Of a stretch of DNA of 41,035 nucleotides, positions 1,874-41,035 are shown piece after piece; position 1 is the first letter of the stretch; each line of letters opens with the position of its first letter. The position numbers and the translations under genes are program-made. The notes below the pieces were generated by a model. That model was not told where the DNA came from, searched no databases, and was given only the letters and a program-made list of their open reading frames with translations. The stretch comes from a virus (lineage: Duplodnaviria; Heunggongvirae; Uroviricota; Caudoviricetes), in IMG/VR virus record IMGVR_UViG_2671181040_000013; one strand, 5' to 3'.

Positions 1874-2070
1874 TACTGGCTGCGACATTTTTGAATAAAA
1901 GCGTCGATATTTCGGCGCTCATAACGAACTACTTTTGCACTGAAACGAATTGGTGCCAGGATAGCCCGATGACGATGCTTAATATTCCACTCACATAGCG
2001 TTTTCTGTGTAATACCTAACTTTTGGCATACTTCATCCGGGGTGAGTAAATCGTCGGGTTTCTCGCTCAT
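1870..2070 (-). CDS. xis: AlpA/Xis-like DNA-binding protein (putative excisionase)
   Basis: 66-aa basic protein with HTH-like segment (LTPDEVCQKLGITQKTLCEW); adjacent to int; 4-bp overlap with upstream helicase gene. Confidence 0.6.
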   Translation of the reverse strand: MSEKPDDLLTPDEVCQKLGITQKTLCEWNIKHRHRAILAPIRFSAKVVRYERRNIDAFIQKCRSQY

Positions 2071-3464
2071 GCTATACCTCTCTTTTTCATGGCATCGAGC
2101 AGGATGTCCTGCACTGTTCGTTTTGAGTTGCGCCGCTCCATCACCATTTCGTCCATAGTGTCGGCAGCAATAATGTGGTGAATAAATACCGGACGATTGT
2201 GTCCGGCCTGTATCTGTCTGGTTGGGCCGATACGTTCAATAATTTGCTGATATTGCTCCAGGTCCCACCAGTGTGAGAAAAATACCAGTATATTTCCGCC
2301 GTCCTGCATGTTCAGGCCGTGGCCCGCGCTGGCTGGGTGTGCAAAGAGAACAGGAATCTTTCCGGAATTCCAGTCGCGCAGTGTCTGTGGATCCTGGTCG
2401 AGGTGACGACCGCGAGGGAATGCTTTAAGCAAGCGTTCAAGATCGTGTTTCCAGTGATAAGCAACCAGCACAGGTGCGCCAGCTGCTTCGGTCAGTATGC
2501 TGTCCAGCGCCTGTAGTTTGGTGTCATGCAGTTCTGACCAACTTCCGGTGTCATCTGTGTATACTGCGCCGCTGGCGATTTGCAGACACTTCAGTGTCTT
2601 TGCCGCGGCGTTCGGTGCTTCGATGCCTTCGCCATTCAGCTCGAGGAACATTTCCTTTTCCATTTCACGATACTGCTGACGGGCCTTCGGTGGCATATCC
2701 ACGCGGATTACGTTATGGATGGGGTCTTTGATATCGAACCAGTCGGCCGCATCCAGCGAGAGGGTTACATCGGCTAACGCTCGCTGTATTTCACCCTGTG
2801 AGTGAGCAAAAGGCTCCAGTTTGGTCCAGCTCAGCCCCGGAAACTGTATCGAGTTGAACCAGCGTGAGGTAAACGCGCCGTAAGTGCGCCCGAGACGTTG
2901 CCCCTGGTCCACAAACCACGATTGTCCCCACAAATCTACCAGGCCGTTCGGTGCTGGCGTACCGGTGAGATTTATCCAGCGCCGGACATACTTATGCGCC
3001 ACTTTGCCCAGCGCCGCCGCGCGCTTACCACCACCTCGCAGCCGGAAGGATTTTAGCCGGGTGCTTTCATCTGGAATGACAATACCGAACGGCCATCGTT
3101 CTCCCAATTCTTCAACCAGCCAGACAAGGTTATCGTAGTTGATGGTGAACACGCTTGCGTTGCTGTTCGCCAGCGCCGTAGAGCGCGCTTTGGCATTACC
3201 AACAATCGGCTGCACCTCGATATTGCGCAAATGCCCCCACTTCACTGCTTCATCCGGCCAGGTGTTTGCTGCAACACGTAGCGGCGCGAGGACCAGTGCG
3301 GGGCGTGTTTCTGCCCCTGCCATAAAAAGATCTTCCAGCGCAGTGAGCGTTGCCACGGTTTTACCCATTCCCATACCTGCCCAGATGTTGCAGCGCATAA
3401 TGTCGATTTGATGATTGATGATGAGATCTTGGTAGGGGTGAGGTGAAAATATAGCATAGTCCAT
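2067..3464 (-). CDS. SNF2/DEAD-like superfamily-2 helicase
   Basis: Walker A GMGMGKT and DExx box (IPDESTR) visible in the 465-aa translation. Confidence 0.8.
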   Translation of the reverse strand: MDYAIFSPHPYQDLIINHQIDIMRCNIWAGMGMGKTVATLTALEDLFMAGAETRPALVLAPLRVAANTWPDEAVKWGHLRNIEVQPIVGNAKARSTALANSNASVFTINYDNLVWLVEELGERWPFGIVIPDESTRLKSFRLRGGGKRAAALGKVAHKYVRRWINLTGTPAPNGLVDLWGQSWFVDQGQRLGRTYGAFTSRWFNSIQFPGLSWTKLEPFAHSQGEIQRALADVTLSLDAADWFDIKDPIHNVIRVDMPPKARQQYREMEKEMFLELNGEGIEAPNAAAKTLKCLQIASGAVYTDDTGSWSELHDTKLQALDSILTEAAGAPVLVAYHWKHDLERLLKAFPRGRHLDQDPQTLRDWNSGKIPVLFAHPASAGHGLNMQDGGNILVFFSHWWDLEQYQQIIERIGPTRQIQAGHNRPVFIHHIIAADTMDEMVMERRNSKRTVQDILLDAMKKRGIA

Positions 3465-3531
3465 GGTATTGTATCTCCATGAATGAACTTATGTAGTAAT
3501 AGCTTAATTATTTATTTCGAAAGGAACAGTT

Positions 3532-4410
3532 ATGACCTCAGCTTATACAGATGTCCAGCAAGAAGAAAATATTACTGATAAATTAGTTGTTAAATATGAT
3601 GGTCCCGCACTAGCAGATCATAAAATAGATTTGGATGTTTTAACTGAGTCATTGAATGGACTAAACAACTTGCTTAAAGAAGTTAATTTGGTTGTCAATG
3701 GCACTAGTGAGTGTATTAATGTTGAGGTTGAGCCTTTTAAGGAAGGCTCATTTGAGTATTTGATTGATGTTATTCAAAATCCACTTGACCATTTGAATAT
3801 ATTAAGCATTATTGGGCTTGGAGGTACAACTGCACTCGCAGCAGGAAATACTCTCATTGACTTAATTCGTCAGATCAATGGTAGGCAAATAAAACGGTTG
3901 ACTTTAACAGCGGAAGGAGACTGTAAAATAGTTATGGATGATGGTGAGGAAATTATAGCCCCGTCATATTTCCGGCCTTTACTTGCCTCACCAAGCATAC
4001 GCAAATCCTTATCGAAGTTAATTCATAATCCTTTGCAAAAGGAAGGATACGAATCGCTTAAAATTTCAACTCAACAGGGGGTTGAGCTGATTAAGGTGCA
4101 CGAAGATAATATTGAACCGTTCAGATATAGGCGCGTTCCTGTAGTGCAGTCCTTGTCTGAAAGGGTGATTGAAGAGGCTCTAATCACATTTTTGACTATT
4201 CATAAGGATAAAAACACAGGCTGGCGAGTCAACTATGGCGATGACACAATCAGCGTGTCTATAGAAGATACTGAGTTCTTACAACGTGTTAGTACGGGAA
4301 GAGAACCTGGTGTTTTTAGTGATGCTTACTGCGTTGATTTGCTCGTCCGTGAGAACTTGAATTCGCTGGACAAAACGTACATAGTTGTTAAAGTACACGG
4401 CATCTTATAG
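3532..4410 (+). CDS. Hypothetical 292-aa soluble protein, first gene of accessory cassette
   Basis: ATG preceded by AAAGGAA; AT-rich by eye; opposite strand to flanking replication genes; no recognisable motif. Confidence 0.7.
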   Translation: MTSAYTDVQQEENITDKLVVKYDGPALADHKIDLDVLTESLNGLNNLLKEVNLVVNGTSECINVEVEPFKEGSFEYLIDVIQNPLDHLNILSIIGLGGTTALAAGNTLIDLIRQINGRQIKRLTLTAEGDCKIVMDDGEEIIAPSYFRPLLASPSIRKSLSKLIHNPLQKEGYESLKISTQQGVELIKVHEDNIEPFRYRRVPVVQSLSERVIEEALITFLTIHKDKNTGWRVNYGDDTISVSIEDTEFLQRVSTGREPGVFSDAYCVDLLVRENLNSLDKTYIVVKVHGIL

Positions 4411-4433
4411 TAGATTCACATGGGGAGGGGGCT

Positions 4434-4682
4434 ATGATTGCTTTTGCTTTTTGGCTGGCTTTTTTTAGCCTGCTTCCCGTACTATATTGGGTTCTTAAGA
4501 TGGGGTTTGACCGGTTACGCTTTGCGCTTATGCCTAAACATCATCTTGTTCTTGAATGTGTTGACTCAGAAGGAGTTGTCCGTCGCGATGTCGTTGATGT
4601 CTCTTCTGATGATGAATTTTACAAAATTGCAATGAATGCCATTCGTGCTGGAAGATCAGTCAAAGGAGGGACGTTTGAGTAG
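4434..4682 (+). CDS. Hypothetical 82-aa protein with one N-terminal transmembrane helix, second gene of cassette
   Basis: GGAGG 6 nt upstream of ATG 4434; hydrophobic N-terminus (IAFAFWLAFFSLLPVLYWVL) then charged soluble tail. Confidence 0.55.
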   Translation: MIAFAFWLAFFSLLPVLYWVLKMGFDRLRFALMPKHHLVLECVDSEGVVRRDVVDVSSDDEFYKIAMNAIRAGRSVKGGTFE

Positions 4683-5205
4683 CGCTTCTAAACCTGATAG
4701 CTACGAAAAAGTCCCTCTGATTTCTAATGTTGCTGCTGGTGGCATCACTGGTTTTTTAACATTACTGGTGTCCTCGTGGGACGGTCGTTTTCCGTATATT
4801 GGTTCTGATTTAAATACAATAAAGCCATTTCTTTTATTAATGCTTCCCAGTTGCGCTATGTTTCTGGCGCATTGGATAAAGTCGATTGGGTTTAAATGGT
4901 CCTTAGGTAGCGTTAATCGACAGTTATTAAGCATTAATAAGAAGAAAGAAAAAGAACTTCGCCGTGATATTGAAAAGTACAAAAATGTTATTTCTAATGA
5001 AAAGATAGAGGACTTTAAAAGTCAACTTGAACAAGTATTACAAGATCGTCATGATATTATTTCTAATAATTACGCACAGAAACTAAGAGAAAGAAATTAT
5101 ACGCAAGAAAAATATCATGAGCATAAACAAACCGCTGCAAATGATAATATTGAGCTGCAAAGCATACTGGAGAATCAGAAGTTCAATCAAAAAGGCATTG
5201 ACTAA
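4636..5205 (+). CDS. Hypothetical membrane protein (two predicted TM helices plus charged coiled-coil C-terminus), third gene of cassette
   Basis: ORF frame open from ATG 4636; more likely start is TTG 4675 preceded by AGGAGG (4664-4669), overlapping the stop of the previous gene; TM segments VAAGGITGFLTLLVSSW and FLLLMLPSCAMFLAHWI. Confidence 0.6.
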   Translation: MPFVLEDQSKEGRLSSASKPDSYEKVPLISNVAAGGITGFLTLLVSSWDGRFPYIGSDLNTIKPFLLLMLPSCAMFLAHWIKSIGFKWSLGSVNRQLLSINKKKEKELRRDIEKYKNVISNEKIEDFKSQLEQVLQDRHDIISNNYAQKLRERNYTQEKYHEHKQTAANDNIELQSILENQKFNQKGID

Positions 5206-5209
5206 ATTT

Positions 5210-5479
5210 TTATAATATCCTCTCTAGGTTCTTGCTATCCAGCACCACTACGGTAAAGCCCAGTTTTCGCAGACGTTCATGTTCGCGCAATTGGTCAGGC
5301 CGTGGTGGCTTGCCGGGAGATTTACATTCAACGAAAACGATACGACCACCTGGTAGCAGGACAATGCGATCCGGTACCGAGCGGTGACCGGGAGATACAA
5401 ACTTAAAGGCCACTCCGCCAGCTTTTTTCACTTCAGCGACGAGGTGCTTTTCGATAAGGCTTTCACGTTCATAGGCCAT
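5210..5479 (-). CDS. VRR-NUC domain nuclease
   Basis: About 89 aa with acidic/Lys residues in a PD-(D/E)XK-like arrangement (VPDRIVLL...VFVECKSPG); typical size and context; start chosen at MAYERES. Confidence 0.7.
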   Translation of the reverse strand: MAYERESLIEKHLVAEVKKAGGVAFKFVSPGHRSVPDRIVLLPGGRIVFVECKSPGKPPRPDQLREHERLRKLGFTVVVLDSKNLERIL

Positions 5480-5768
5480 CTGAATCCCACTCTTCAAAAA
5501 GCACATTCAATTCCAGTTTCTCTGCCAACGCGTTTTCTGCACGTGCGCCAGCAGAGTACTCCCACTCTTTGAGCATATAAATCGTATCGGCACAGCGAAG
5601 CATTGCGAGGCAGATGTCCATATACTGAGCCTGTGTCAAACCATTGGGTAAAGTTGCGGGGTTAAGCACAACATATCCCTTGTCCGTTAGCCTCTTTGCT
5701 GCGGAATGAAAAGCCGGGCGGTTAAATTGCTCGTAACCGCTCATCGGCCCGGCAACGTAAACGATCAT
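5469..5768 (-). CDS. DUF4406-like / nucleoside 2-deoxyribosyltransferase-like protein
   Basis: N-terminus MIVYVAGPMSG characteristic of this family as I recall; in replication module. Confidence 0.6.
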   Translation of the reverse strand: MIVYVAGPMSGYEQFNRPAFHSAAKRLTDKGYVVLNPATLPNGLTQAQYMDICLAMLRCADTIYMLKEWEYSAGARAENALAEKLELNVLFEEWDSDGL

Positions 5769-5980
5769 TCTTCGACCGCCTTACGCTTTTCACGCATATT
5801 CTGCATCAGGCAAAAATCAGATCTGCGTTCACTCCATTCCTGATTCAGTTCGTGATGTGATTCGCGGTTGGCTTTTGCCCAGACCTTCGCTGCCCGGTCA
5901 TATTCGCCGGATTGTTCAAGTCGCAAAGCCTCCCTTGCAGCCCTGTAATAAAGTGGATTGTCCCGGTATTTAAATGACAT
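5765..5980 (-). CDS. Hypothetical 71-aa protein
   Basis: ORF with AAGGAT RBS, overlapping neighbours in operon fashion. Confidence 0.5.
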   Translation of the reverse strand: MSFKYRDNPLYYRAAREALRLEQSGEYDRAAKVWAKANRESHHELNQEWSERRSDFCLMQNMREKRKAVEE

Positions 5981-5985
5981 AGGAG

Positions 5986-8049
5986 TTAATCCTTACGGTA
6001 GTGGTACGCCTCAAAACCGCCAGCGTTCAGTGGGATATCGGGCGCCCATTCGGGGTCAGTGGAGAGAAGCGCGGAAAGCGCTTTATCGTTGAAATCTTCT
6101 GTGTCAGGTGCTTCGGTGATCACCTCGTCGTGTACCGTCAGCACAATGCTGTAACCGGCATCTTCGATAAGCGGCATGTTTCCGGCCAGAATGTCGCGGG
6201 CGGCCGCCTGGGTGATGTTCTCCACCAGCTTTCCGCCGTAGGTTTTGAGTCGTTGCCATTTACGCGAATAAGAGTTAACCCCCATGTAGGTGATATTCCC
6301 TTTTTCGATAACCGGAGACGGGTAGCATACAGCGCGTCCGGATGGTAGCTGTATGCGCAGCCACGCGCCATCGCGGCGGATTTTAAGATAACCGCAATAC
6401 AATGTTTTTTGCGGTGTGGCGATTGCAGTGCGGACGGTGCGCTCCAGTTCGTACCAGAAATCACAGGTCGCGGGATGCGCCCGGCGCCAGAGACGTTTAA
6501 GTGAGTCGCAGGCGATAAATACCCGTTCAGAAAGCCCGTAGGTTGACTTGCGTTTAACCGATTCGTCGTACCAGCTTTTTGCCTCGCGGATAACATCGCG
6601 GGGAATGTTTGGTAGTGCGGCGTTCGCCAGCTCGTCGAGATCGAGACCGTAAACCAGTGCAAAAGTGATGAAGGCCGACACACCACCACCATAACCCAGA
6701 CCGAGTTCCATGACTTTACCGATCTGACGCATGTGTTTATCAACATCATCTGGTGCAATATCGAAAGCTTTTGCATACGCCAGTTTATATAAGTCCGGAC
6801 CCGTTCCGGCGTCGTACTCTCTGAATGCATTCAGTTTCCATTCTTCTCCCGCCAGCCATGCCAGCATACGGCCTTCAATGTTCGACAAGTCACTTACCAC
6901 CAGCTTTTTGCCTGTTGGCGCGATAATGCAGCCACGTAACGCTGAACTGGTTAGTTCCATGATATTGTCAAACAGCAGGTCTGCACATCCGGCTTTCAGT
7001 GCTTCGATGCCTTCGTCTATTTGTTCCTGTTTTAGTGAAGGGCGGGGAAGGTTCTGGGGCTGGAATAGCCGTCCGGCCCAACGACCGGTACGTGACGCCC
7101 CGCAGAACTGTAGCGTACCGCGTAAGCGCCCGTCGTGGCTTACGCCTTTCATCAGTGCCTTGTATTTACTGGTGCTGGTAGTACTGGCCTGCAGGCGGAT
7201 AGCCAGCAGTTCTTTCACGGCAGATGGTAAATCGGGGTCGGCAATACGACGTTCCAGAGTACTGCGTTGCATGTCCGGTAGCTCCACACCGTAGGATTCA
7301 ACAATGTGCTTAATCAACGCGTCCCGTTGTGTGGCTGCCTGCACTTCGCCATCAGTCATTTCCTGTGTACGCTTTGCCAGGCGCTTTTGCTCCTGGTCTA
7401 CCGCTTCGATCGCAGCGCGCGCGAGTTGCATGTCCATGCAGACGCCCCGGTCGTTGATCTGCTGATCACGATGCCAGAGCGCCAGCTCTGTCCCCTGATA
7501 ATTCCACTTCGGCAGACGTTTATAGACTTCGCGCATTGCCTCGATATCCAGTCCGGCGTAAGCAACAAAGCGCCGCCATTCTTCCGGGTGGGTTTTACTG
7601 GTGGCCCGACGCAGTTTGCTGTTTTTTGGGCGTGGCTTACAGAACAGCTGGATCAGCGCTTTACCTTCTTTGTCCTTCGCTTTGTCTTGCGGGACGCCTA
7701 GTACTTCGCAGAGTTCCCCCAGAGACCCCGGGAGACCGTGCGCCAGCGCCTGCACCATCGTGTCGCGCCAACGTTCGACTGGCGGTGCCAGTCGCGGCAT
7801 TGCATAACGCAGGACGGTGCGGTCGAAGTGAGAGTTATGAAAATAAAGCAGGGTTTCAGGGGCTGCGATTGCTTCGTATAAGCCGTGTGGAATACCACTA
7901 CCGGCAGTGATATCCCACACGTTTACGGGCCCGTCGTTGATAGCCCATGCGAACAGCATCACTTCAACGCCTTCGGCATACGCATGGGTACCGTTCGTAA
8001 TAGGGATTTCGCAATAGGTTTCTAGGTCACCCCATAGTATATTGGACAT
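5986..8049 (-). CDS. Family A DNA polymerase with 3'-5' exonuclease domain
   Basis: Exo motif DLETY near N-terminus; polymerase motifs ([25 protein letters not shown]) in the 687-aa translation. Confidence 0.9.
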
Positions 8050-8442: not shown

Positions 8443-9081
8443 TTAAGCATCTACCCCTTCGTCAGAAGGGAGGCCGATCATTTCGTTGAGAGTTTCGCGT
8501 CGTATAGCTGGCGGAAGCGGAGCAGATGGTGCATCGGCTGGCAGAAGTTCTTTAGCTTCAGGCCACTCTTCCAGCAGGCGCTTAACTGTGCGCACTTTAC
8601 TGAGTGCAGCGCTGACATTCTGTCGAATGTCTGACTCATCGCTCTGTATCTGCTCATAAAGTGCATCAAACCCGTAAAACTCTGTAACTAGAGGGTCATT
8701 TGCCAGAAGGGTAAATTCCCCCGGCGCGATTTTGTGAATATGGTCTGGTGACCCTGATTCATATCCTCGATAGTTACCGTTGAAATAGACGGTAACCCGA
8801 GAACCTGCCAGATTCAGACACATGTAACACTCTTTCCTGATAATATTATTGGCGGTTTTTAATGCTTCGGGGACTTTTGATACCAGTATTTCTATTTTTT
8901 TTATAATTTTTAATATTTCAGCTTCTTTCTCTACGCCCCCGATAGCTGCAAGCCGAACACGTTCGGCCCATTCAACACGAGCAGCTCGTAGTGCTGATTT
9001 ACGTTTGGGGATACCCGCTTTCTCAAGTGCGTTATTGATGATTTGAGTTTTAAGGTGATTAGTTAATACGGGCTGTGACAT
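8443..9081 (-). CDS. Hypothetical phage protein (about 212 aa)
   Basis: Long ORF in early operon; start chosen at MSQPVLT with GAGGG RBS. Confidence 0.6.
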   Translation of the reverse strand: MSQPVLTNHLKTQIINNALEKAGIPKRKSALRAARVEWAERVRLAAIGGVEKEAEILKIIKKIEILVSKVPEALKTANNIIRKECYMCLNLAGSRVTVYFNGNYRGYESGSPDHIHKIAPGEFTLLANDPLVTEFYGFDALYEQIQSDESDIRQNVSAALSKVRTVKRLLEEWPEAKELLPADAPSAPLPPAIRRETLNEMIGLPSDEGVDA

Positions 9082-9132
9082 TATTCTTTCCCTCATGAGA
9101 TCCCCCAGCATGTAGCTGGGGGATGAATATTT

Positions 9133-9681
9133 TTAAATTAGTGCTTCAGCATCAGCACCTTCGCTGATATCGTCGAAATCGTCAGCGCTTGCCACTCCGC
9201 CGCCAGCGAATGCATCGCCGTCTCGCAGGAACTGGACTCCGCCGAGTGAGGCATTAATGCGTTTACCGAAATTATTGTCCTGTGCCCAGATATCGATAAC
9301 GGCGTTTACATAGCACCCTGCATAGGGACGTCCGTCAGCCTGAATAAGTGGCGAACGATCGCGATCAAGAACAGCTGGGCGCGCTTTGTTAGCAGCATTC
9401 AGGAAGAAATTACCGGGGAAGCCTTCATACTCTGCTTTTTCATCACCATCATGCAGGCACAGATTGAGTTTTTTCTCCAGCTGGTTATAAATGGGCTCCC
9501 ACTTCTCTCCCCATTTTTCCTTCGCTACCTGCTTCATAGCTTTACGGATTTCTTCCAGTTGTGGGTGTTTGGGAGACATTAAAAATACTGCGGAGAAACG
9601 CGGATCGCCTTCGCCGTTTACAGTTTTAGCTTCAAACAGAGACGGGAAGGCCAGACGAACATTGTTCAGCTTCAGTTTCAT
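9133..9681 (-). CDS. Phage ssDNA-binding-like protein (DUF2815-like)
   Basis: N-terminus MKLKLNNVRLAFPSLFE and acidic C-terminal tail DDFDDISEGADAEALI. Confidence 0.7.
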   Translation of the reverse strand: MKLKLNNVRLAFPSLFEAKTVNGEGDPRFSAVFLMSPKHPQLEEIRKAMKQVAKEKWGEKWEPIYNQLEKKLNLCLHDGDEKAEYEGFPGNFFLNAANKARPAVLDRDRSPLIQADGRPYAGCYVNAVIDIWAQDNNFGKRINASLGGVQFLRDGDAFAGGGVASADDFDDISEGADAEALI

Positions 9682-19391: not shown

Positions 19392-19771
19392 CTGCCTATG
19401 GGCGGTTTTTATTGCCATTACGATGATTCTCCCCATTGTGATGGCAGTATCCCCTACAGAGGATAATTAACCATATATCCCCACAAGCAGATAAAGAGGC
19501 TCTCAATGTCCGACATCTACCAAACCCAAACAGGCGAAACCTTTACGGGCAAGACGTCACGACGTCAGCCTGAGCTGGTTAATGGCTTTATGCAGCTGGC
19601 TACCGAGACGGGCGAGTAAATAACTCCATTAGGAGAATGTGGAACCATTACACTTTGAGCCGTTAACTGATATTGATAAAGGTAAATAATATCCTGGTTA
19701 AGGTTTTCTAATAGCCAGCCATTTGCAAAATCACAGTTACAGCAGCAGCGAAAGCTGCATATGAGTTATAT

Positions 19772-34416: not shown

Positions 34417-35448
34417 ATGTCGAAAAACTGGATGCGTCACTTTGAATTATTGCTTGTTGATGATAAGGGCGACGGGATAAAAATTTCTGAGCTTAAAGTC
34501 ACTTTCAATATTCAGAAAATGCCTGCGACCATATTTAATGGATTCGTTGGAAATTTTAAGGTTTATAACCTGTCTCCTACCACTCAGAACCGGATTATGC
34601 AGAAGGAGTTTTCGCGTATACAGGTTATTGCCGGATACAAGGGGCAACCGGATGCAGCAGGTAATTATCCTGATGAAAACGTTGGCATGATATTCAATGG
34701 AGATATCCGTTTTACTGTCACTGGTAAAGATAATGCCACAGACAGTTGGATCATGTTGCAGTGTATTGACAGCTGGGAAGGTCACCTGAACGCAAGTGTG
34801 AAAACCACAGTGGCTGCTGGCTGGAAGTACAGCGATCTTTTCAGTCTGGGTATGAAATCATTCGAACCATATGGCATCGAATCCGGCGCAGTTCCTGACA
34901 TGCCTGAAACGGTATTTCCCCGGGGGCGCGTTGTTTATCAAAACACATCAAGGTTGATGAATCATATCGCAGGGCAGTGTAAGGCTAACTGGTGGTATGA
35001 AAATAATCTGGTAAATATTGTTCCTGAAGATAAATATATTGGTGTTGCTACGGTGTTGAATGCTAACACCGGGCTTATCGGTATGCCACAGCAGACGATG
35101 GGAGCTGGCGTAAATGTCAGATGTCTGATTAATCCAAATATTAAGCTCGGTGGGCTTATTCGTCTGGATCAGGCATCTGTATACCGTGCCTCTTTGAGTA
35201 ATGACCAGGTAGCGAAATCGCCAGCACGACTGGATGAGTCTGAAAGCGACGGTAATCTCTACGTTAACGGTCTGCCAGGCATGTCACAGCCTGCCAGCAT
35301 TAATACTGACGGTGATTACATTGTGGGCAGCATTGATTATACTGGCGACACCCGAGGGCAGGCGTGGTATATGGACCTGCTTTGCCTGGCTAAAGGTGGC
35401 AAAGAATTGCTTAACTCGAAAGGGATTGATGCGGAGAAATACACATGA
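34417..35448 (+). CDS. Putative baseplate hub protein
   Basis: 343 aa in baseplate region; position-based. Confidence 0.55.
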   Translation: MSKNWMRHFELLLVDDKGDGIKISELKVTFNIQKMPATIFNGFVGNFKVYNLSPTTQNRIMQKEFSRIQVIAGYKGQPDAAGNYPDENVGMIFNGDIRFTVTGKDNATDSWIMLQCIDSWEGHLNASVKTTVAAGWKYSDLFSLGMKSFEPYGIESGAVPDMPETVFPRGRVVYQNTSRLMNHIAGQCKANWWYENNLVNIVPEDKYIGVATVLNANTGLIGMPQQTMGAGVNVRCLINPNIKLGGLIRLDQASVYRASLSNDQVAKSPARLDESESDGNLYVNGLPGMSQPASINTDGDYIVGSIDYTGDTRGQAWYMDLLCLAKGGKELLNSKGIDAEKYT

Positions 35449-35780
35449 AAAGACCATTGTTGACAGTTTTACTTGTCTGTATCTCCTTCATTTCCTTTGC
35501 TGATACCGGTTGCGGACCATTTACGATCAACTGGAAAGCGCAAGACGGACTTGCAAGGATTAATGGACAGAAACCGGAGACACAGAAAATCATCTTTCTC
35601 AAACAGGAAGGTGATTATGACAATGTGAACATCCAATGGATGATTCCGGGTAATGGGCGTTGGTTAGGGATGGATTTTGTGGCCAGAAATGGCAAGCCGA
35701 TCCTCAACGTTGAAGTTATCCGCAAAAATATGGACGAGCCTCGGGAGTTCTGGACGTATGATTGCCGGAAGGTGAAGTGA
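35445..35780 (+). CDS. Secreted 111-aa protein with signal peptide, accessory gene inside baseplate operon
   Basis: N-terminus MKRPLLTVLLVCISFISFA; two Cys (possible disulfide); ATGA overlap with upstream gene. Confidence 0.6.
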   Translation: MKRPLLTVLLVCISFISFADTGCGPFTINWKAQDGLARINGQKPETQKIIFLKQEGDYDNVNIQWMIPGNGRWLGMDFVARNGKPILNVEVIRKNMDEPREFWTYDCRKVK

Positions 35781-35855
35781 ATTACATTGGCGTCCAGCTT
35801 CTGCAGAACAGCATGGATGCGCCGAAAATCATCGGTTCCTTTCCATGCAAAAAGA

Positions 35856-35883
35856 TTGTTGATTAATCACTCGTAATTATAAT
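35856..35883 (+). promoter_or_regulatory. Sigma70-like promoter for the 35920 accessory gene
   Basis: TTGTTG (35856-35861), 16-nt spacer, perfect TATAAT (35878-35883). Confidence 0.5.
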
Positions 35884-35919
35884 GTGATACTTCTACTTTC
35901 ACGATAAGGAATTTGTCGC

Positions 35920-36159
35920 ATGTTCGGATTTGATAAATTAATAACTCCAAAAATCATCAACGTTCTGTATGGCATCACAATGTTACTTCTGGTTGTTGCC
36001 GCCATTATAACGTTTGTTAATGGGAAGGCTGCTGGCGCTTTAGTGCTTTTGTTATGTGCTGTATTTTGCCGAATATTCTTTGAGTGCATCATGGTTTCAT
36101 TTAAAAACAATGAGTATCTTCGCCGAATAGCTGAAGCGTTAGAAGCAAACAAGCAGTAA
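35920..36159 (+). CDS. Small (79 aa) two-TM membrane protein, accessory gene with own promoter and terminator
   Basis: ATG with AAGGAA RBS; hydrophobic helices; flanked by promoter and terminator. Confidence 0.6.
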   Translation: MFGFDKLITPKIINVLYGITMLLLVVAAIITFVNGKAAGALVLLLCAVFCRIFFECIMVSFKNNEYLRRIAEALEANKQ

Positions 36160-36177
36160 TGAAACTTCAATAATGAA

Positions 36178-36199
36178 CCCGCCACCCGGCGGGTTTTTT
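36178..36199 (+). terminator. Intrinsic terminator
   Basis: CCCGCC-ACCC-GGCGGG followed by TTTTTT. Confidence 0.7.
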
Positions 36200-37324: not shown

Positions 37325-38523
37325 TGGCTCTGAACCTTGATTCTCTCGGTTTATCTGCAAAGGTAACCGCAGAGGGGATCAGTGCGCCTGATTATCAGAC
37401 GATACTCAGCACCCTGATTAGCTATTTTCAGCAGATTTATGGCAGTGATGCCTACCTCGAACCGGACAGCAAAGACGGCCAGATGGTGGCTCTGATGGCA
37501 CTGGCGATTCATGATGCCAATAATACGGCGATAACTGTCTACAACTGTTTTTCACCGGCAACCGGCTATGGGGCTGCACTGACCAGTAACGTGAAAATAA
37601 ATGGTATTTCACGTAAAGGCGCGACGAACTCTACGGTTGATTTGCTTCTTACAGGAACTGCCGGAACAACCATCATTAATGGCAGCGTGAAAGACAGTAA
37701 TAATGTGATATGGCGTTTGCCTGCTTCAGTGGTGGTCGGCGTGGATGGTACAGTGATGGCGACCGCAACATGTTCCGTCAGTGGTGCAGTGGCGGCGCTG
37801 GCTGGAACAATCACTGAAATTAATACGCCAACCCGTGGCTGGGTTTCGGTAACTAATCCTGCTGCGGCTACTGTTGGCTCTCCGGCAGAAACTGATGCGG
37901 AGTTACGTATCCGTCAGTCGCAAAGTGTTGCGTTGCCATCAATAACCCCATTTGAAGCACTGGATGGTGCTGTTTCTAATGTTACCGGTGTAACCCGCCA
38001 CAAACTCTATGAAAATGATACTGGTTCGGAGGACGGTAACGGGTTACCGCCACACTCTGTTGCTGTGATTGTGGATGGCGGTGATGTGACGGATATTGCT
38101 CAGGCTATCAGAGGGAATAAAGGTCAGGGGACAGCCACTCACGGTACAACATCCGTTACGATTCCGGATAAATACGGCAATCCCCATGTAATCAAGTTCT
38201 CGCGTTCCAGTGATGTACCTGTTTATGCCCGGATCAAATTACAAGTTTTTACGGGTTATACCTCACAGATAGGGCAGCAGATCCAGCAGGCTATTTCCGA
38301 CTATATCAATAGTCTGATGATTGGTGATTCGGTCCTTTTAAGTCGCATTTACTCACCGGCGAATCTTGGCGTGGTGAGTGGCGGGAATGCACGCTATTAC
38401 GATATTCAGGAACTGACGATTGGGAAATCCCCGGGGGCTTTGTCGTCATCAAACATTGATATCAGATACAACGAATCTGTGTCCTGTACCCCGGAAAATA
38501 TCGTTATAACGGTGGAGTCATGA
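37324..38523 (+). CDS. Baseplate J-like protein
   Basis: 399 aa; size and position typical for baseplate J family. Confidence 0.7.
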   Translation: MALNLDSLGLSAKVTAEGISAPDYQTILSTLISYFQQIYGSDAYLEPDSKDGQMVALMALAIHDANNTAITVYNCFSPATGYGAALTSNVKINGISRKGATNSTVDLLLTGTAGTTIINGSVKDSNNVIWRLPASVVVGVDGTVMATATCSVSGAVAALAGTITEINTPTRGWVSVTNPAAATVGSPAETDAELRIRQSQSVALPSITPFEALDGAVSNVTGVTRHKLYENDTGSEDGNGLPPHSVAVIVDGGDVTDIAQAIRGNKGQGTATHGTTSVTIPDKYGNPHVIKFSRSSDVPVYARIKLQVFTGYTSQIGQQIQQAISDYINSLMIGDSVLLSRIYSPANLGVVSGGNARYYDIQELTIGKSPGALSSSNIDIRYNESVSCTPENIVITVES

Positions 38524-39200
38524 GCAAATACACCGAACTAATCACGAACTACCACGCCACCAAACCTAAATTTCTTGCGCATGTTGATCTGATGACCCGG
38601 CCACTTATTGATGTTGCGGCTGCCACCAGAGGGCTGATTACTGCATTTGATATTGACTCTGCGGTTGGTGTGCAACTTGACATTCTTGGATTGTGGATCG
38701 GACGTAGCCGTGTTGTCAGCCAGCCTATCTCAGGTGTCTATTTCAGCTGGGATACCGACGGGCTTGGATATGATCAGGGGATATGGCAGGGACCATACGA
38801 TCCTGATTCAGGATACATGTATCTCAGCGATGAAACTTATCGTGTCATTCTTAAAGCGAAGATTGCGATTAATAACTGGGACGGACGGAATGATTCGCTT
38901 CCGGCAATTCTTGACGCGGCAACAGCAGGATCCGGGCTGCGAATGCAGATAGTCGATAACCAGGACATGACGATATCGGTCTGGGTCTTTCCTGATACTG
39001 ATATTTCAGATGTATCGCGTGAGTTAATTGCGGCAATTAAACAGGGGTATCTCACAGTAAAAGCCGCCGGGGTATGGGCGGGGGGCATTGAAACACCTTC
39101 GGTGGAAACTCCATCGGAAGGCTCTAAATTTTTTGGTTTTGATATGGATAACGAATTCATCAGTGGTTTTGATGTAGGGGCATGGGGAGTATTACTCTGA
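38520..39200 (+). CDS. Baseplate / tail protein (gpI-like)
   Basis: 226 aa between J-like and fibre genes. Confidence 0.55.
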
Positions 39201-40018
39201 TGGCGAAAAATGACTTTAAAGCGTTTGCAACTGATCGAAATGCCAATGTTATGTCGCAGGAGGAATGGGAAGCGTTGCCTGCGCTTTTATCCGGATTTAC
39301 AGCAGGGAAAGCATCCAGTGCGCAAGTCAATAAGGTTATTCGGCAGGCCAGCTTTATTGCTGCAGCTCTGGCCCAGTTTGTAAGTGATAAAACGCAACGG
39401 GATGTGCTTGATAATGGTGATCTTCCCGGTTTTGTTGAATTGCTGGGATCGGGGTTTGCTGTTGAATACCTGAGCCGCAAGAATCCGTTTGGTGATATCA
39501 AATCGGATGGCACAGTACCAACGGCTCTCGAAAATCTTGGTTTGGGAGAAGGCTCTGCATTACCTGTTGGTGTGCCTGTTCCGTGGCCCTCCGCAACCCC
39601 GCCAACGGGCTGGCTGAAATGCAACGGCGCTGCCTTTGATAAGGTGAAATATCCCCATCTTGCTACAGCATATCCATCAGGGAAACTACCTGATCTCCGT
39701 GGTGAGTTTATTCGTGGATGGGATGACGGGCGTGGTATTGATGCAGGACGTGCTTTATTGAGCATTCAGACTGGGATGCTGGAAAAACACCGCCATATTG
39801 TTGTTGCCAACGATGGGTATGATTCAAAAGAGGAATGGGAACTGGCGACAATCTTCAGAAGAGCATATACGCAAGGCCGGGGGCTTGATGCTACCGATGC
39901 CGGAGGAACCCTGATTCCATCACCAACGCTACATACACGAGGGAGTATTGGTAACACAGGTGGGAGCGAAACCCGTCCACGAAATATTGCATTTAACTAT
40001 ATCGTGAGAGCTGCATAA
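39200..40018 (+). CDS. Tail fibre protein with collar-like C-terminal domain
   Basis: 272 aa; segment [38 protein letters not shown] resembles phage tail-collar domains. Confidence 0.75.
39525..39550. promoter_or_regulatory. Candidate Gin/Hin-family recombination site (invertible-segment boundary) inside fibre gene
   Basis: 26-bp imperfect palindrome CTCTCGAAAATC-TT-GGTTTGGGAGAA with AAA(T/C)C-NN-GGTTT core reminiscent of gix/hix sites (from memory). Confidence 0.3.
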
Positions 40019-40620
40019 TGGATAAAGCCGTATTAAATAGCGAACTTATTGCCACGAAGGCGGGGAATATTACCGTCTATAACTATGATGGTGAAACACG
40101 GGAATATATTTCCACTTCAAATGAATATCTTGCCGTTGGTGTCGGTATCCCGGCATATTCCTGTTTAGATGCTCCTGGCACATATAAGGCTGGTTATGCA
40201 ATCTGCCGTTCAGTAGATTTAAACTCATGGGAATATATGCCAGACCATCGCGGTGAAATTATCTATAGCACCGAAACAGGAGAAGCAAAAGAAATCACAG
40301 CTCCGGGTGATTACCCTGAAAATACAACCACTATCGTCCCGTTAACGCCATATGATAAATGGGATGGTGAGAAATGGGTGACAGATTCTGAGGCACAACA
40401 CGGTGCCGCAGTAGAAGCGGCAGAAGCACAGCGCCAGTCACTGATTGATGCAGCAATGGCTTCCATTAGTCTGATTCAGCTGAAATTACAGGCCGGGCGG
40501 AAACTGGCGCAGGCAGAAACAACCCGGCTTAACGCTGTGCTGGATTACATTGACGCGGTGACGGCAACAAATACCAGCACCGCGCCTGATGTCATCTGGC
40601 CTGAGCTGCCGGAGGCGTAG
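40018..40620 (+). CDS. Tail fibre assembly protein (Tfa)
   Basis: 200 aa directly after fibre gene; C-terminal TSTAPDVIWPELP motif shared with convergent paralogue. Confidence 0.75.
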   Translation: MDKAVLNSELIATKAGNITVYNYDGETREYISTSNEYLAVGVGIPAYSCLDAPGTYKAGYAICRSVDLNSWEYMPDHRGEIIYSTETGEAKEITAPGDYPENTTTIVPLTPYDKWDGEKWVTDSEAQHGAAVEAAEAQRQSLIDAAMASISLIQLKLQAGRKLAQAETTRLNAVLDYIDAVTATNTSTAPDVIWPELPEA

Positions 40621-41035
40621 GCCATTCAATATCGGGTGCTGTTGACGTATCAACACGCATCAGCAGCACACGGTATTTCTTCCATTGGGTGAGAGTTGAA
40701 GTTTCTTCATCAGTTGCGATACCAGCATCAACAGCATCCTGACGCCAGGATATTTCACTGTCAGCTTTTGCACGAAATGTGGCTTTCATGTTTTCTGCAT
40801 CTGATATTTTCTGTTCTGGTGAAAGCGGAGGCTCATCAACCCATGCAAGGGCCCCTGAAACCATTCCCAGCATTTTGCCTGTCGGCTTATTTCCTCCATT
40901 AAATCTGACAACATCCTCATCGCTGATTTCAATACCATCCTGCGGCCATGTCCCCTCCTTGATATAACTTTCATATAGCGCTGCGTTGTAGATTGCATTT
41001 TCGGACGGACTGTAAACACTTTTAACTTTATTCAT
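40592..41035 (-). CDS. Second tail fibre assembly protein (Tfa'), convergent
   Basis: 147 aa on minus strand; C-terminus TSTAPDIEWPTPP; 3' ends of the two Tfa genes overlap by about 29 bp. Confidence 0.7.
   Translation of the reverse strand: MNKVKSVYSPSENAIYNAALYESYIKEGTWPQDGIEISDEDVVRFNGGNKPTGKMLGMVSGALAWVDEPPLSPEQKISDAENMKATFRAKADSEISWRQDAVDAGIATDEETSTLTQWKKYRVLLMRVDTSTAPDIEWPTPPAAQAR

Follow-up and report, generated by a model that had tools for sequence, protein, structure and literature searches.

The 41,035-nucleotide (nt) stretch IMGVR_UViG_2671181040_000013 (Caudoviricetes), referred to here as the window, carries a tail-fibre gene and two convergent chaperone genes at its right end. 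By structure and by descent, this end is very probably the left half of a P-type (Pin) invertible tail-fibre segment. The segment comprises window positions 39537-41035 together with the next 396 base pairs (bp) of the source contig, approximately 1.9 kb in all. A probable invertible host-range segment had been proposed in the first-pass annotation, and the proposal is supported by a partner half-site, by an in-frame alternative fusion and by the presence of both orientations within the prophage lineage. With somewhat less assurance, the segment is likely to be switching still in this strain. The system itself is not new; the prophage is a further carrier of it, and the mechanism is textbook. 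Coordinates are window positions unless a locus is named. The features of the segment are listed below, with lengths in amino acids (aa).

39200-40018, plus strand: tail-fibre open reading frame (ORF), 272 aa, Pfam Collar (E = 2.4e-14)
39200-39536, plus strand: Sc, fixed N-terminal part of the fibre (codons 1-112), outside the invertible segment and common to both fibre forms
39525-39550: left 26-bp crossover site, pixL type, CTCTCGAAAATC-TT-GGTTTGGGAGAA, central dinucleotide TT at 39537-39538
39537-39552: inverted-repeat arm, TTGGTTTGGGAGAAGG
39539-40018, plus strand: Sv, variable fibre C-terminus now joined to Sc, StfE-like, Collar domain
40018-40620, plus strand: Tfa, TfaE-like tail-fibre assembly chaperone for Sv, 200 aa, Caudo_TAP (6e-30)
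40592-41035, minus strand: Tfa', convergent second chaperone, 147 aa, Caudo_TAP (5e-33)

The order of a fibre gene, a Tfa gene and a convergent second Tfa gene with overlapping 3'-ends, as first described from the sequence, was recovered at these coordinates. The 3'-ends of the Tfa and Tfa' genes share 29 bp (40592-40620), the start codon of Tfa overlaps the stop codon of the fibre gene (TAATG), and the Collar domain spans residues 124-171 of the fibre. The exact Tfa' protein adjoins gp53-like fibre tips and invertases in all 10 of the loci inspected. Judged from the sequence, Tfa' would be silent in the window orientation and cognate to an alternative fibre tip.

Left crossover site and its partner

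The e14 P segment, carried by a cryptic prophage of E. coli K-12, has the gene order stfP-tfaP-tfaE-stfE-pinE and is served by the Pin invertase. The e14 region of E. coli K-12 and the Mu G region were retrieved, and their crossover sites were extracted for comparison with the window. The left site of the window covers fibre codons 109-117, which encode ALENLGLGE. Its half-sites agree at 8 of 12 positions, and the 26-bp imperfect palindrome previously noted at 39525-39550, at about codon 109, is indeed present. The e14 left site reads CTCTCGAAAACCTTGGTTTGGGAGAA, and the window site differs from it by a single base, a C to T change at position 11. When the window was searched with the e14 26-mer at 3 mismatches or fewer, 39525-39550 was the sole match, and none of 100 shuffled sequences contained one. 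The short core AAAYSNNSRTTT, a degenerate 12-nt pattern, matches the window once with 1.15 matches expected, which is not beyond chance, and therefore only the full 26-mer is counted as evidence. The arm TTGGTTTGGGAGAAGG, which forms the inner 16 nt, is identical to the published inverted repeat of the e14 P segment (PMC12529663).

When species-representative genomes were scanned with the 27-mer, only 8 loci were returned. Their sources are E. coli, Shigella and a single metagenome-assembled genome, and all of the loci carry the C variant. The metagenomic copy is an exact 27-nt E. coli-type site at positions 154-180 of a 5.8-kb contig (L027, JAEWTL010000032.1) from an assembly labelled "Bacillota bacterium". 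This contig is probably a mis-binned fragment of an enterobacterial prophage.

The right edge of the window coincides exactly with the Tfa' start codon (41033-41035), as though the sequence had been trimmed at a gene boundary. CXZR01000001.1 (GCA_001285665.1; 603,327 bp), the source contig, extends 396 bp past this point (L005 7836-8232). An alternative fibre C-terminus had been anticipated on the minus strand beyond the window, and the extension holds such a minus-strand ORF, which encodes a fibre C-terminus with a Gp53-like_C domain and ends 4 nt before Tfa'. The source contig terminates in the 15 nt CTTCTCCCAAACCAA, the reverse complement of the left-site TT and inner half-site; its final two bases are the central dinucleotide of the partner site. 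The two central dinucleotides are compatible, with TT at the left site and ...ACC-AA at the contig end, which is TT on the other strand. The anticipated partner site is thus represented on the source contig by its inverted inner half-site and central dinucleotide, and the complete right site is found in collinear relatives.

In-silico inversion between the central dinucleotides provides an in-frame fibre of 242 aa, composed of Sc and the gp53-like tip (Pfam Gp53-like_C). The Sc-S'v junction of the flipped sequence reads GAAAATCTTGGTTTGGGAGAAGCGGCAACG. In the flipped state Tfa' begins 4 nt after the stop codon of the alternative fibre and is preceded by a GGGAG Shine-Dalgarno sequence. The Sc region is collinear up to 39551 in relatives of both orientations, which, with the in-frame alternative tip, bears out the earlier placement of a constant/variable boundary at the palindrome. 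Over the approximately 30 aa of Sc that precede the crossover, identity to the junction part of e14 StfP is 90%. The Sv allele differs between relatives, with 76-80% nucleotide identity.

Additional copies of the repeat were sought in the window and the extension with the 15-mer at 3 mismatches or fewer. None was detected beyond the two ends, except for a near-match with 3 mismatches at 19528. The system is assigned two states because no further repeat copies exist, and a multi-inversion system was rejected for the same reason, the repeat being present in two copies only.

The source contig ends exactly where an assembly graph would fork between the two orientations, and this agrees with a mixture of orientations in the sequenced culture. 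It is suggestive only, because a pin region repeated in a second prophage would interrupt the assembly near the same point and because the left site has no matching assembly break. Of 162 collection blocks with the exact Tfa', 50 hold it only on contigs shorter than 2 kb, approximately the size of the segment, and these are consistent with either cause. Short contigs and a contig end at the site are the typical signature of an invertible or repeated segment in short-read assemblies, and such a segment may account for both the draft contig end and the short Tfa' contigs.

Invertase and segment orientation in relatives

Ten loci were obtained by look-up of the exact Tfa' protein. Loci L012 and L016 are collinear with the window and its extension, with 97.5% identity over 4840 nt. 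Past the right-site centre both continue as …AA-CGTTTATGAAAA, the outer half-site, and the right site is identical to that of e14. A 184-aa Resolvase+HTH_7 protein begins 52 nt past the site. The invertase of these relatives is 97% identical to e14 PinE, its best match among solved structures is Gin (3UJ3, E = 1e-93), and pinE is already annotated by RefSeq next to these segments. A serine invertase had been expected beyond the window; it is present in the collinear relatives, whereas the contig of this strain ends inside the partner site. A contig of this strain with a pinE-like gene would be expected to carry CGTTTATGAAAATGCAGAAATAACG... at one end.

The same prophage is found with the segment inverted in L010, L011, L015 and L017 and in the complete genomes L006 and L007. 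These inverted relatives adjoin the same host genes, pphA-yebW-yebV-rsmF. L016 and L011 align collinearly in the flanks and as reverse complements in between, and at each end the adjacent blocks share the 15-20-nt repeats. The flipped junction constructed in silico (1454-nt query) is covered over 100% of its length, with 97.5-98.2% identity, in 4 complete E. coli genomes. When junction-specific 437-nt queries were compared with complete E. coli genomes at a coverage of at least 80%, the window-type junction was detected in 47 genomes and the flipped junction in 5.

The convergent chaperone genes might instead have arisen by static shuffling of tail-fibre modules, with the palindrome being a coding motif (NLGLGE) that has no role in recombination. 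The chance-level frequency of the short core is in keeping with such an origin, as is the LGLGE junction motif, conserved in fibres that belong to several unrelated tail modules. Against it, the full 26-mer matches a site at which recombination was demonstrated experimentally (PMC12529663). The inverted partner is located 1.9 kb away, exactly at the start of the in-frame alternative C-terminus, and copies of the same prophage carry the segment one way or the other, the breakpoints lying at the repeats. Static shuffling is scarcely credible on this evidence, being already contradicted by the in-frame flipped fusion, by the flipped junction in complete genomes and by the breakpoints between L016 and L011.

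The only early match that covered Tfa' was strain ET896 (L002), with a prophage of this type and identical inner half-sites at 7117-7145 and 8945-8973. The outer half-sites of L002 deviate (TTCTCACATACC and TTATAAAAAAGG). Its serine recombinase (9031-9579) is divergent, and the nucleotide region is 66% identical to the Pin region. L002 appears to represent a second invertase lineage that serves the same cassette. As a model for the DNA downstream of the window it was rejected on account of the divergent outer half-sites and recombinase; L012 and L016 are the proper models.

Switching, locking and possible roles in the lysogen

Directly to the right of the segment, a serine DNA invertase is predicted that belongs to the Hin/Gin/Cin/Pin group. 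From what is known of these enzymes, a Pin dimer would bind each of the inverted 26-bp sites, and an enhancer occupied by Fis would bring the complex together on supercoiled DNA. At the central TT/AA of both sites, the catalytic serines would then cut both strands, and a 180-degree rotation and religation would follow. The promoter and the first approximately 112 codons of the fibre would remain fixed, and inversion would exchange the C-terminus together with its chaperone. The window state would thus provide the Collar-domain tip with the TfaE-like chaperone, and the flipped state would provide the gp53-like tip with Tfa' as a 242-aa fibre. The predicted outcome is a reversible two-way switch of the receptor-binding tip and presumably of host range. 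In known systems the Fis-bound recombinational enhancer acts in cis from a position inside the 5' portion of the invertase gene. This enhancer is probably conserved in L016, because the site-plus-invertase region of that locus has 93.7% nucleotide identity to e14.

Inversion of the e14 segment was previously demonstrated by read-pair analysis and the polymerase chain reaction (PCR) (PMC4272514) and by sequencing and quantitative PCR, with PinE, PinQ and PinR all being active (PMC12529663). PinQ and PinR act on the e14 segment in trans from other prophages (PMC12529663).

Several observations weigh against the assignment of an active P-type segment in this strain. The source contig ends at the centre of the right site, before the outer half-site and the position of the invertase. 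The left site bears a private C to T change adjoining the core. The flipped relatives are not pure inversions, with an Sv allele that is approximately 80% identical or falls below the detection threshold. Since the Collar-type allele differs in this way, the sequences indicate that allele exchange occurs on top of inversion. The evidence for both orientations is from comparisons between genomes only. Truncated invertases are found in some relatives, as a pseudogene in L006 and as a 315-nt remnant in L004, and locked copies of the segment therefore exist.

These points raise the question of whether the segment in this strain is a locked fossil, in which the invertase has been lost or truncated, or the C to T change blocks recombination, and only the Collar-type fibre is made. 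The truncated invertases in L006 and L004 adjoin the same segment, and the window-type orientation is approximately 9 times more common than the flipped one among complete genomes. The T variant at 39535 is confined to the source contig, as 1 of 19 site copies in the fetched loci, and the other 18 have C. The change is synonymous (AAC to AAT, Asn) and converts AAAACC to AAAATC next to the cleavage core. Position 12, beside the changed position 11, varies naturally between the two functional half-sites of e14 (ACC versus ACG), and for this reason the change is expected to be tolerated by recombination. Pin-family enzymes moreover act in trans, as PinQ and PinR do on the e14 segment (PMC12529663). 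Of 5426 complete genomes, 2672 contain matches to window positions 38500-41035, with as many as 9 such places in a single genome. The reading frames of both fibre tips and both chaperones are open and intact. A locked fossil is accordingly unlikely, and a segment that still switches is preferred.

A separate question is whether the segment serves mainly as a host defence in the lysogen and not in phage host range. In the window orientation the gp53-like tip would be the one next to the invertase. The relatives have a short conserved stub, M(M)PFARYFCIFINVGLGE..., that provides an ATG of its own and is joined to whichever tip adjoins the invertase; the stub with start codon that is joined to the invertase-proximal gp53-like tip reads MMPFARYFCIFINVGLGE... 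This makes the "off" copy a full ORF of 137-179 aa, as at L016 3565-3996, at L001 8535-8948 (minus strand) and at e14 (L009) 5120-5656 (minus strand). In L016 (143 aa) and L001 (137 aa) this ORF has its own ATG in the spacer between site and invertase and a gp53-like C-terminal domain. The corresponding chimera of e14, StfE2, which combines the stub with a gp53-like part, is reported to block adsorption of T2 (PMC12529663). A primarily defensive role is nevertheless improbable, with a full structural module in this prophage that makes switching of the virion fibre the straightforward reading, with a gp53-like tip that has no BLASTP similarity to the C-terminus of e14 StfP, and with a stub that lies past the contig end in this strain and is known from relatives only.

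By analogy with StfE2, it is conceivable, but doubtful, that the lysogen expresses the invertase-proximal stub and gp53-like ORF and that the small product masks receptors of the outer membrane. If so, one flip would change both the host range of the virion and the resistance of the lysogen to other phages. Since these sites are shared by several prophages of a genome, a single Pin-family enzyme acting in trans could also switch all of those prophages together.

With switching of the virion fibre as the preferred reading, the annotation of the right end of the prophage is corrected to one fibre gene with two alternative C-termini, and the "second Tfa" belongs to the hidden one. The host range of the induced phage may be bimodal.

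Prophage context and known systems

The host element is apparently a complete myovirus-like prophage with a full structural module, unlike the e14 remnant. A DUF2612/Phage_Wedge1 baseplate gene and a Baseplate_J gene directly adjoin the fibre gene on its upstream side. The left part of the window (2067-8049) contains a replication module of its own, which is unusual for temperate myoviruses of E. coli. Within the baseplate module, the slot at 35445-36185 holds other genes in L001, L004 and L006 and looks like a moron (accessory-gene) slot. The features of these two regions are as follows.

2067-3464, minus strand: Snf2-like helicase
3532-4410: LAPAL-motif protein
5986-8049, minus strand: family-A DNA polymerase-like protein
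35445-35780: small ORF, 111 aa, with a signal-peptide/lipoprotein-like N-terminus and without a Pfam match
35920-36159: DUF4282 membrane protein, inside the baseplate module

The same cassette with an adjacent Pin-type invertase is found behind three unrelated baseplate modules. The exact 147-aa Tfa' occurs in L010-L018. Across the loci with the cassette, the constant fibre parts measure approximately 100 to approximately 350 aa. The baseplate types behind the cassette are given here.

L003 and L018: Mu gp44-48-type
L013: P2-type (Tail_P2_I and Phage_tail_fib)
L010-L017: DUF2612/Wedge1-type

The shared cassette fits the known mosaic exchange of fibre tips at a conserved crossover/LGLGE junction, and its presence behind three baseplate modules illustrates how tail-fibre tips move between phages.

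The arrangement was originally likened to the invertible segments of Mu (G) and P1 (C). The shared logic stands, and the closest relative proved to be the e14 P segment with Pin, as judged from the site, the 89% identity to TfaE and the 29-bp overlap. The left site of e14 is the same except for one base and the 16-nt repeat is identical. TfaE is 89% identical to the Tfa of the window, the stfE product is 58% identical to the Collar tip, and the convergent chaperone genes of e14 overlap by 29 bp, as in the window. Relative to the K-12 e14 reference, the arrangement in the window is the "inverted" state. The e14 P segment is 1797 bp (PMC12529663), compared with approximately 1.9 kb here.

The two carriers differ in other respects. 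The e14 element is a lambdoid remnant, whereas the prophage in the window has a DUF2612/Phage_Wedge1 baseplate and its own family-A DNA polymerase. The constant part of the e14 fibre differs from that of the window except for approximately 30 aa at the junction. No similarity was detected by BLASTP between the gp53-like tip and the C-terminus of e14 StfP, and Tfa' is 39% identical to e14 TfaP over the C-terminal half only.

In the Mu G segment (S/U - U'/S', Gin) and the P1 C segment (Cin), the logic is the same, with a fixed fibre N-terminus and two inverted 26-bp sites, and both are more distant from the window than e14 is. As here, two tip-plus-chaperone cassettes are placed tail to tail with an adjacent serine invertase. 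The Mu site, TTATCCAAAACC-TC-GGTTTACAGGAA, shares the AAACC-NN-GGTTT core with the window-type site and differs from that of the window in the central dinucleotide and the outer positions. The Mu segment is approximately 3 kb with a fibre of 504 aa and chaperone genes that do not overlap, and its invertase region has only 71% nucleotide identity. Direct kinship to Mu G was rejected, there being no nucleotide similarity between the segments and the sites being different; Mu is an analogue. Pin and Gin are each able to act on the segment of the other (PMC12529663).

The C-termini of surface-binding proteins are also exchanged by site-specific inversion in a three-repeat locus of a P2-like prophage (PMC4272514) and in the shufflons of plasmids. 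Shufflons use a tyrosine recombinase, whereas the relatives of the window carry a serine invertase. Compared with the multi-site systems, the segment described here has only two copies of the repeat, and hence two states.

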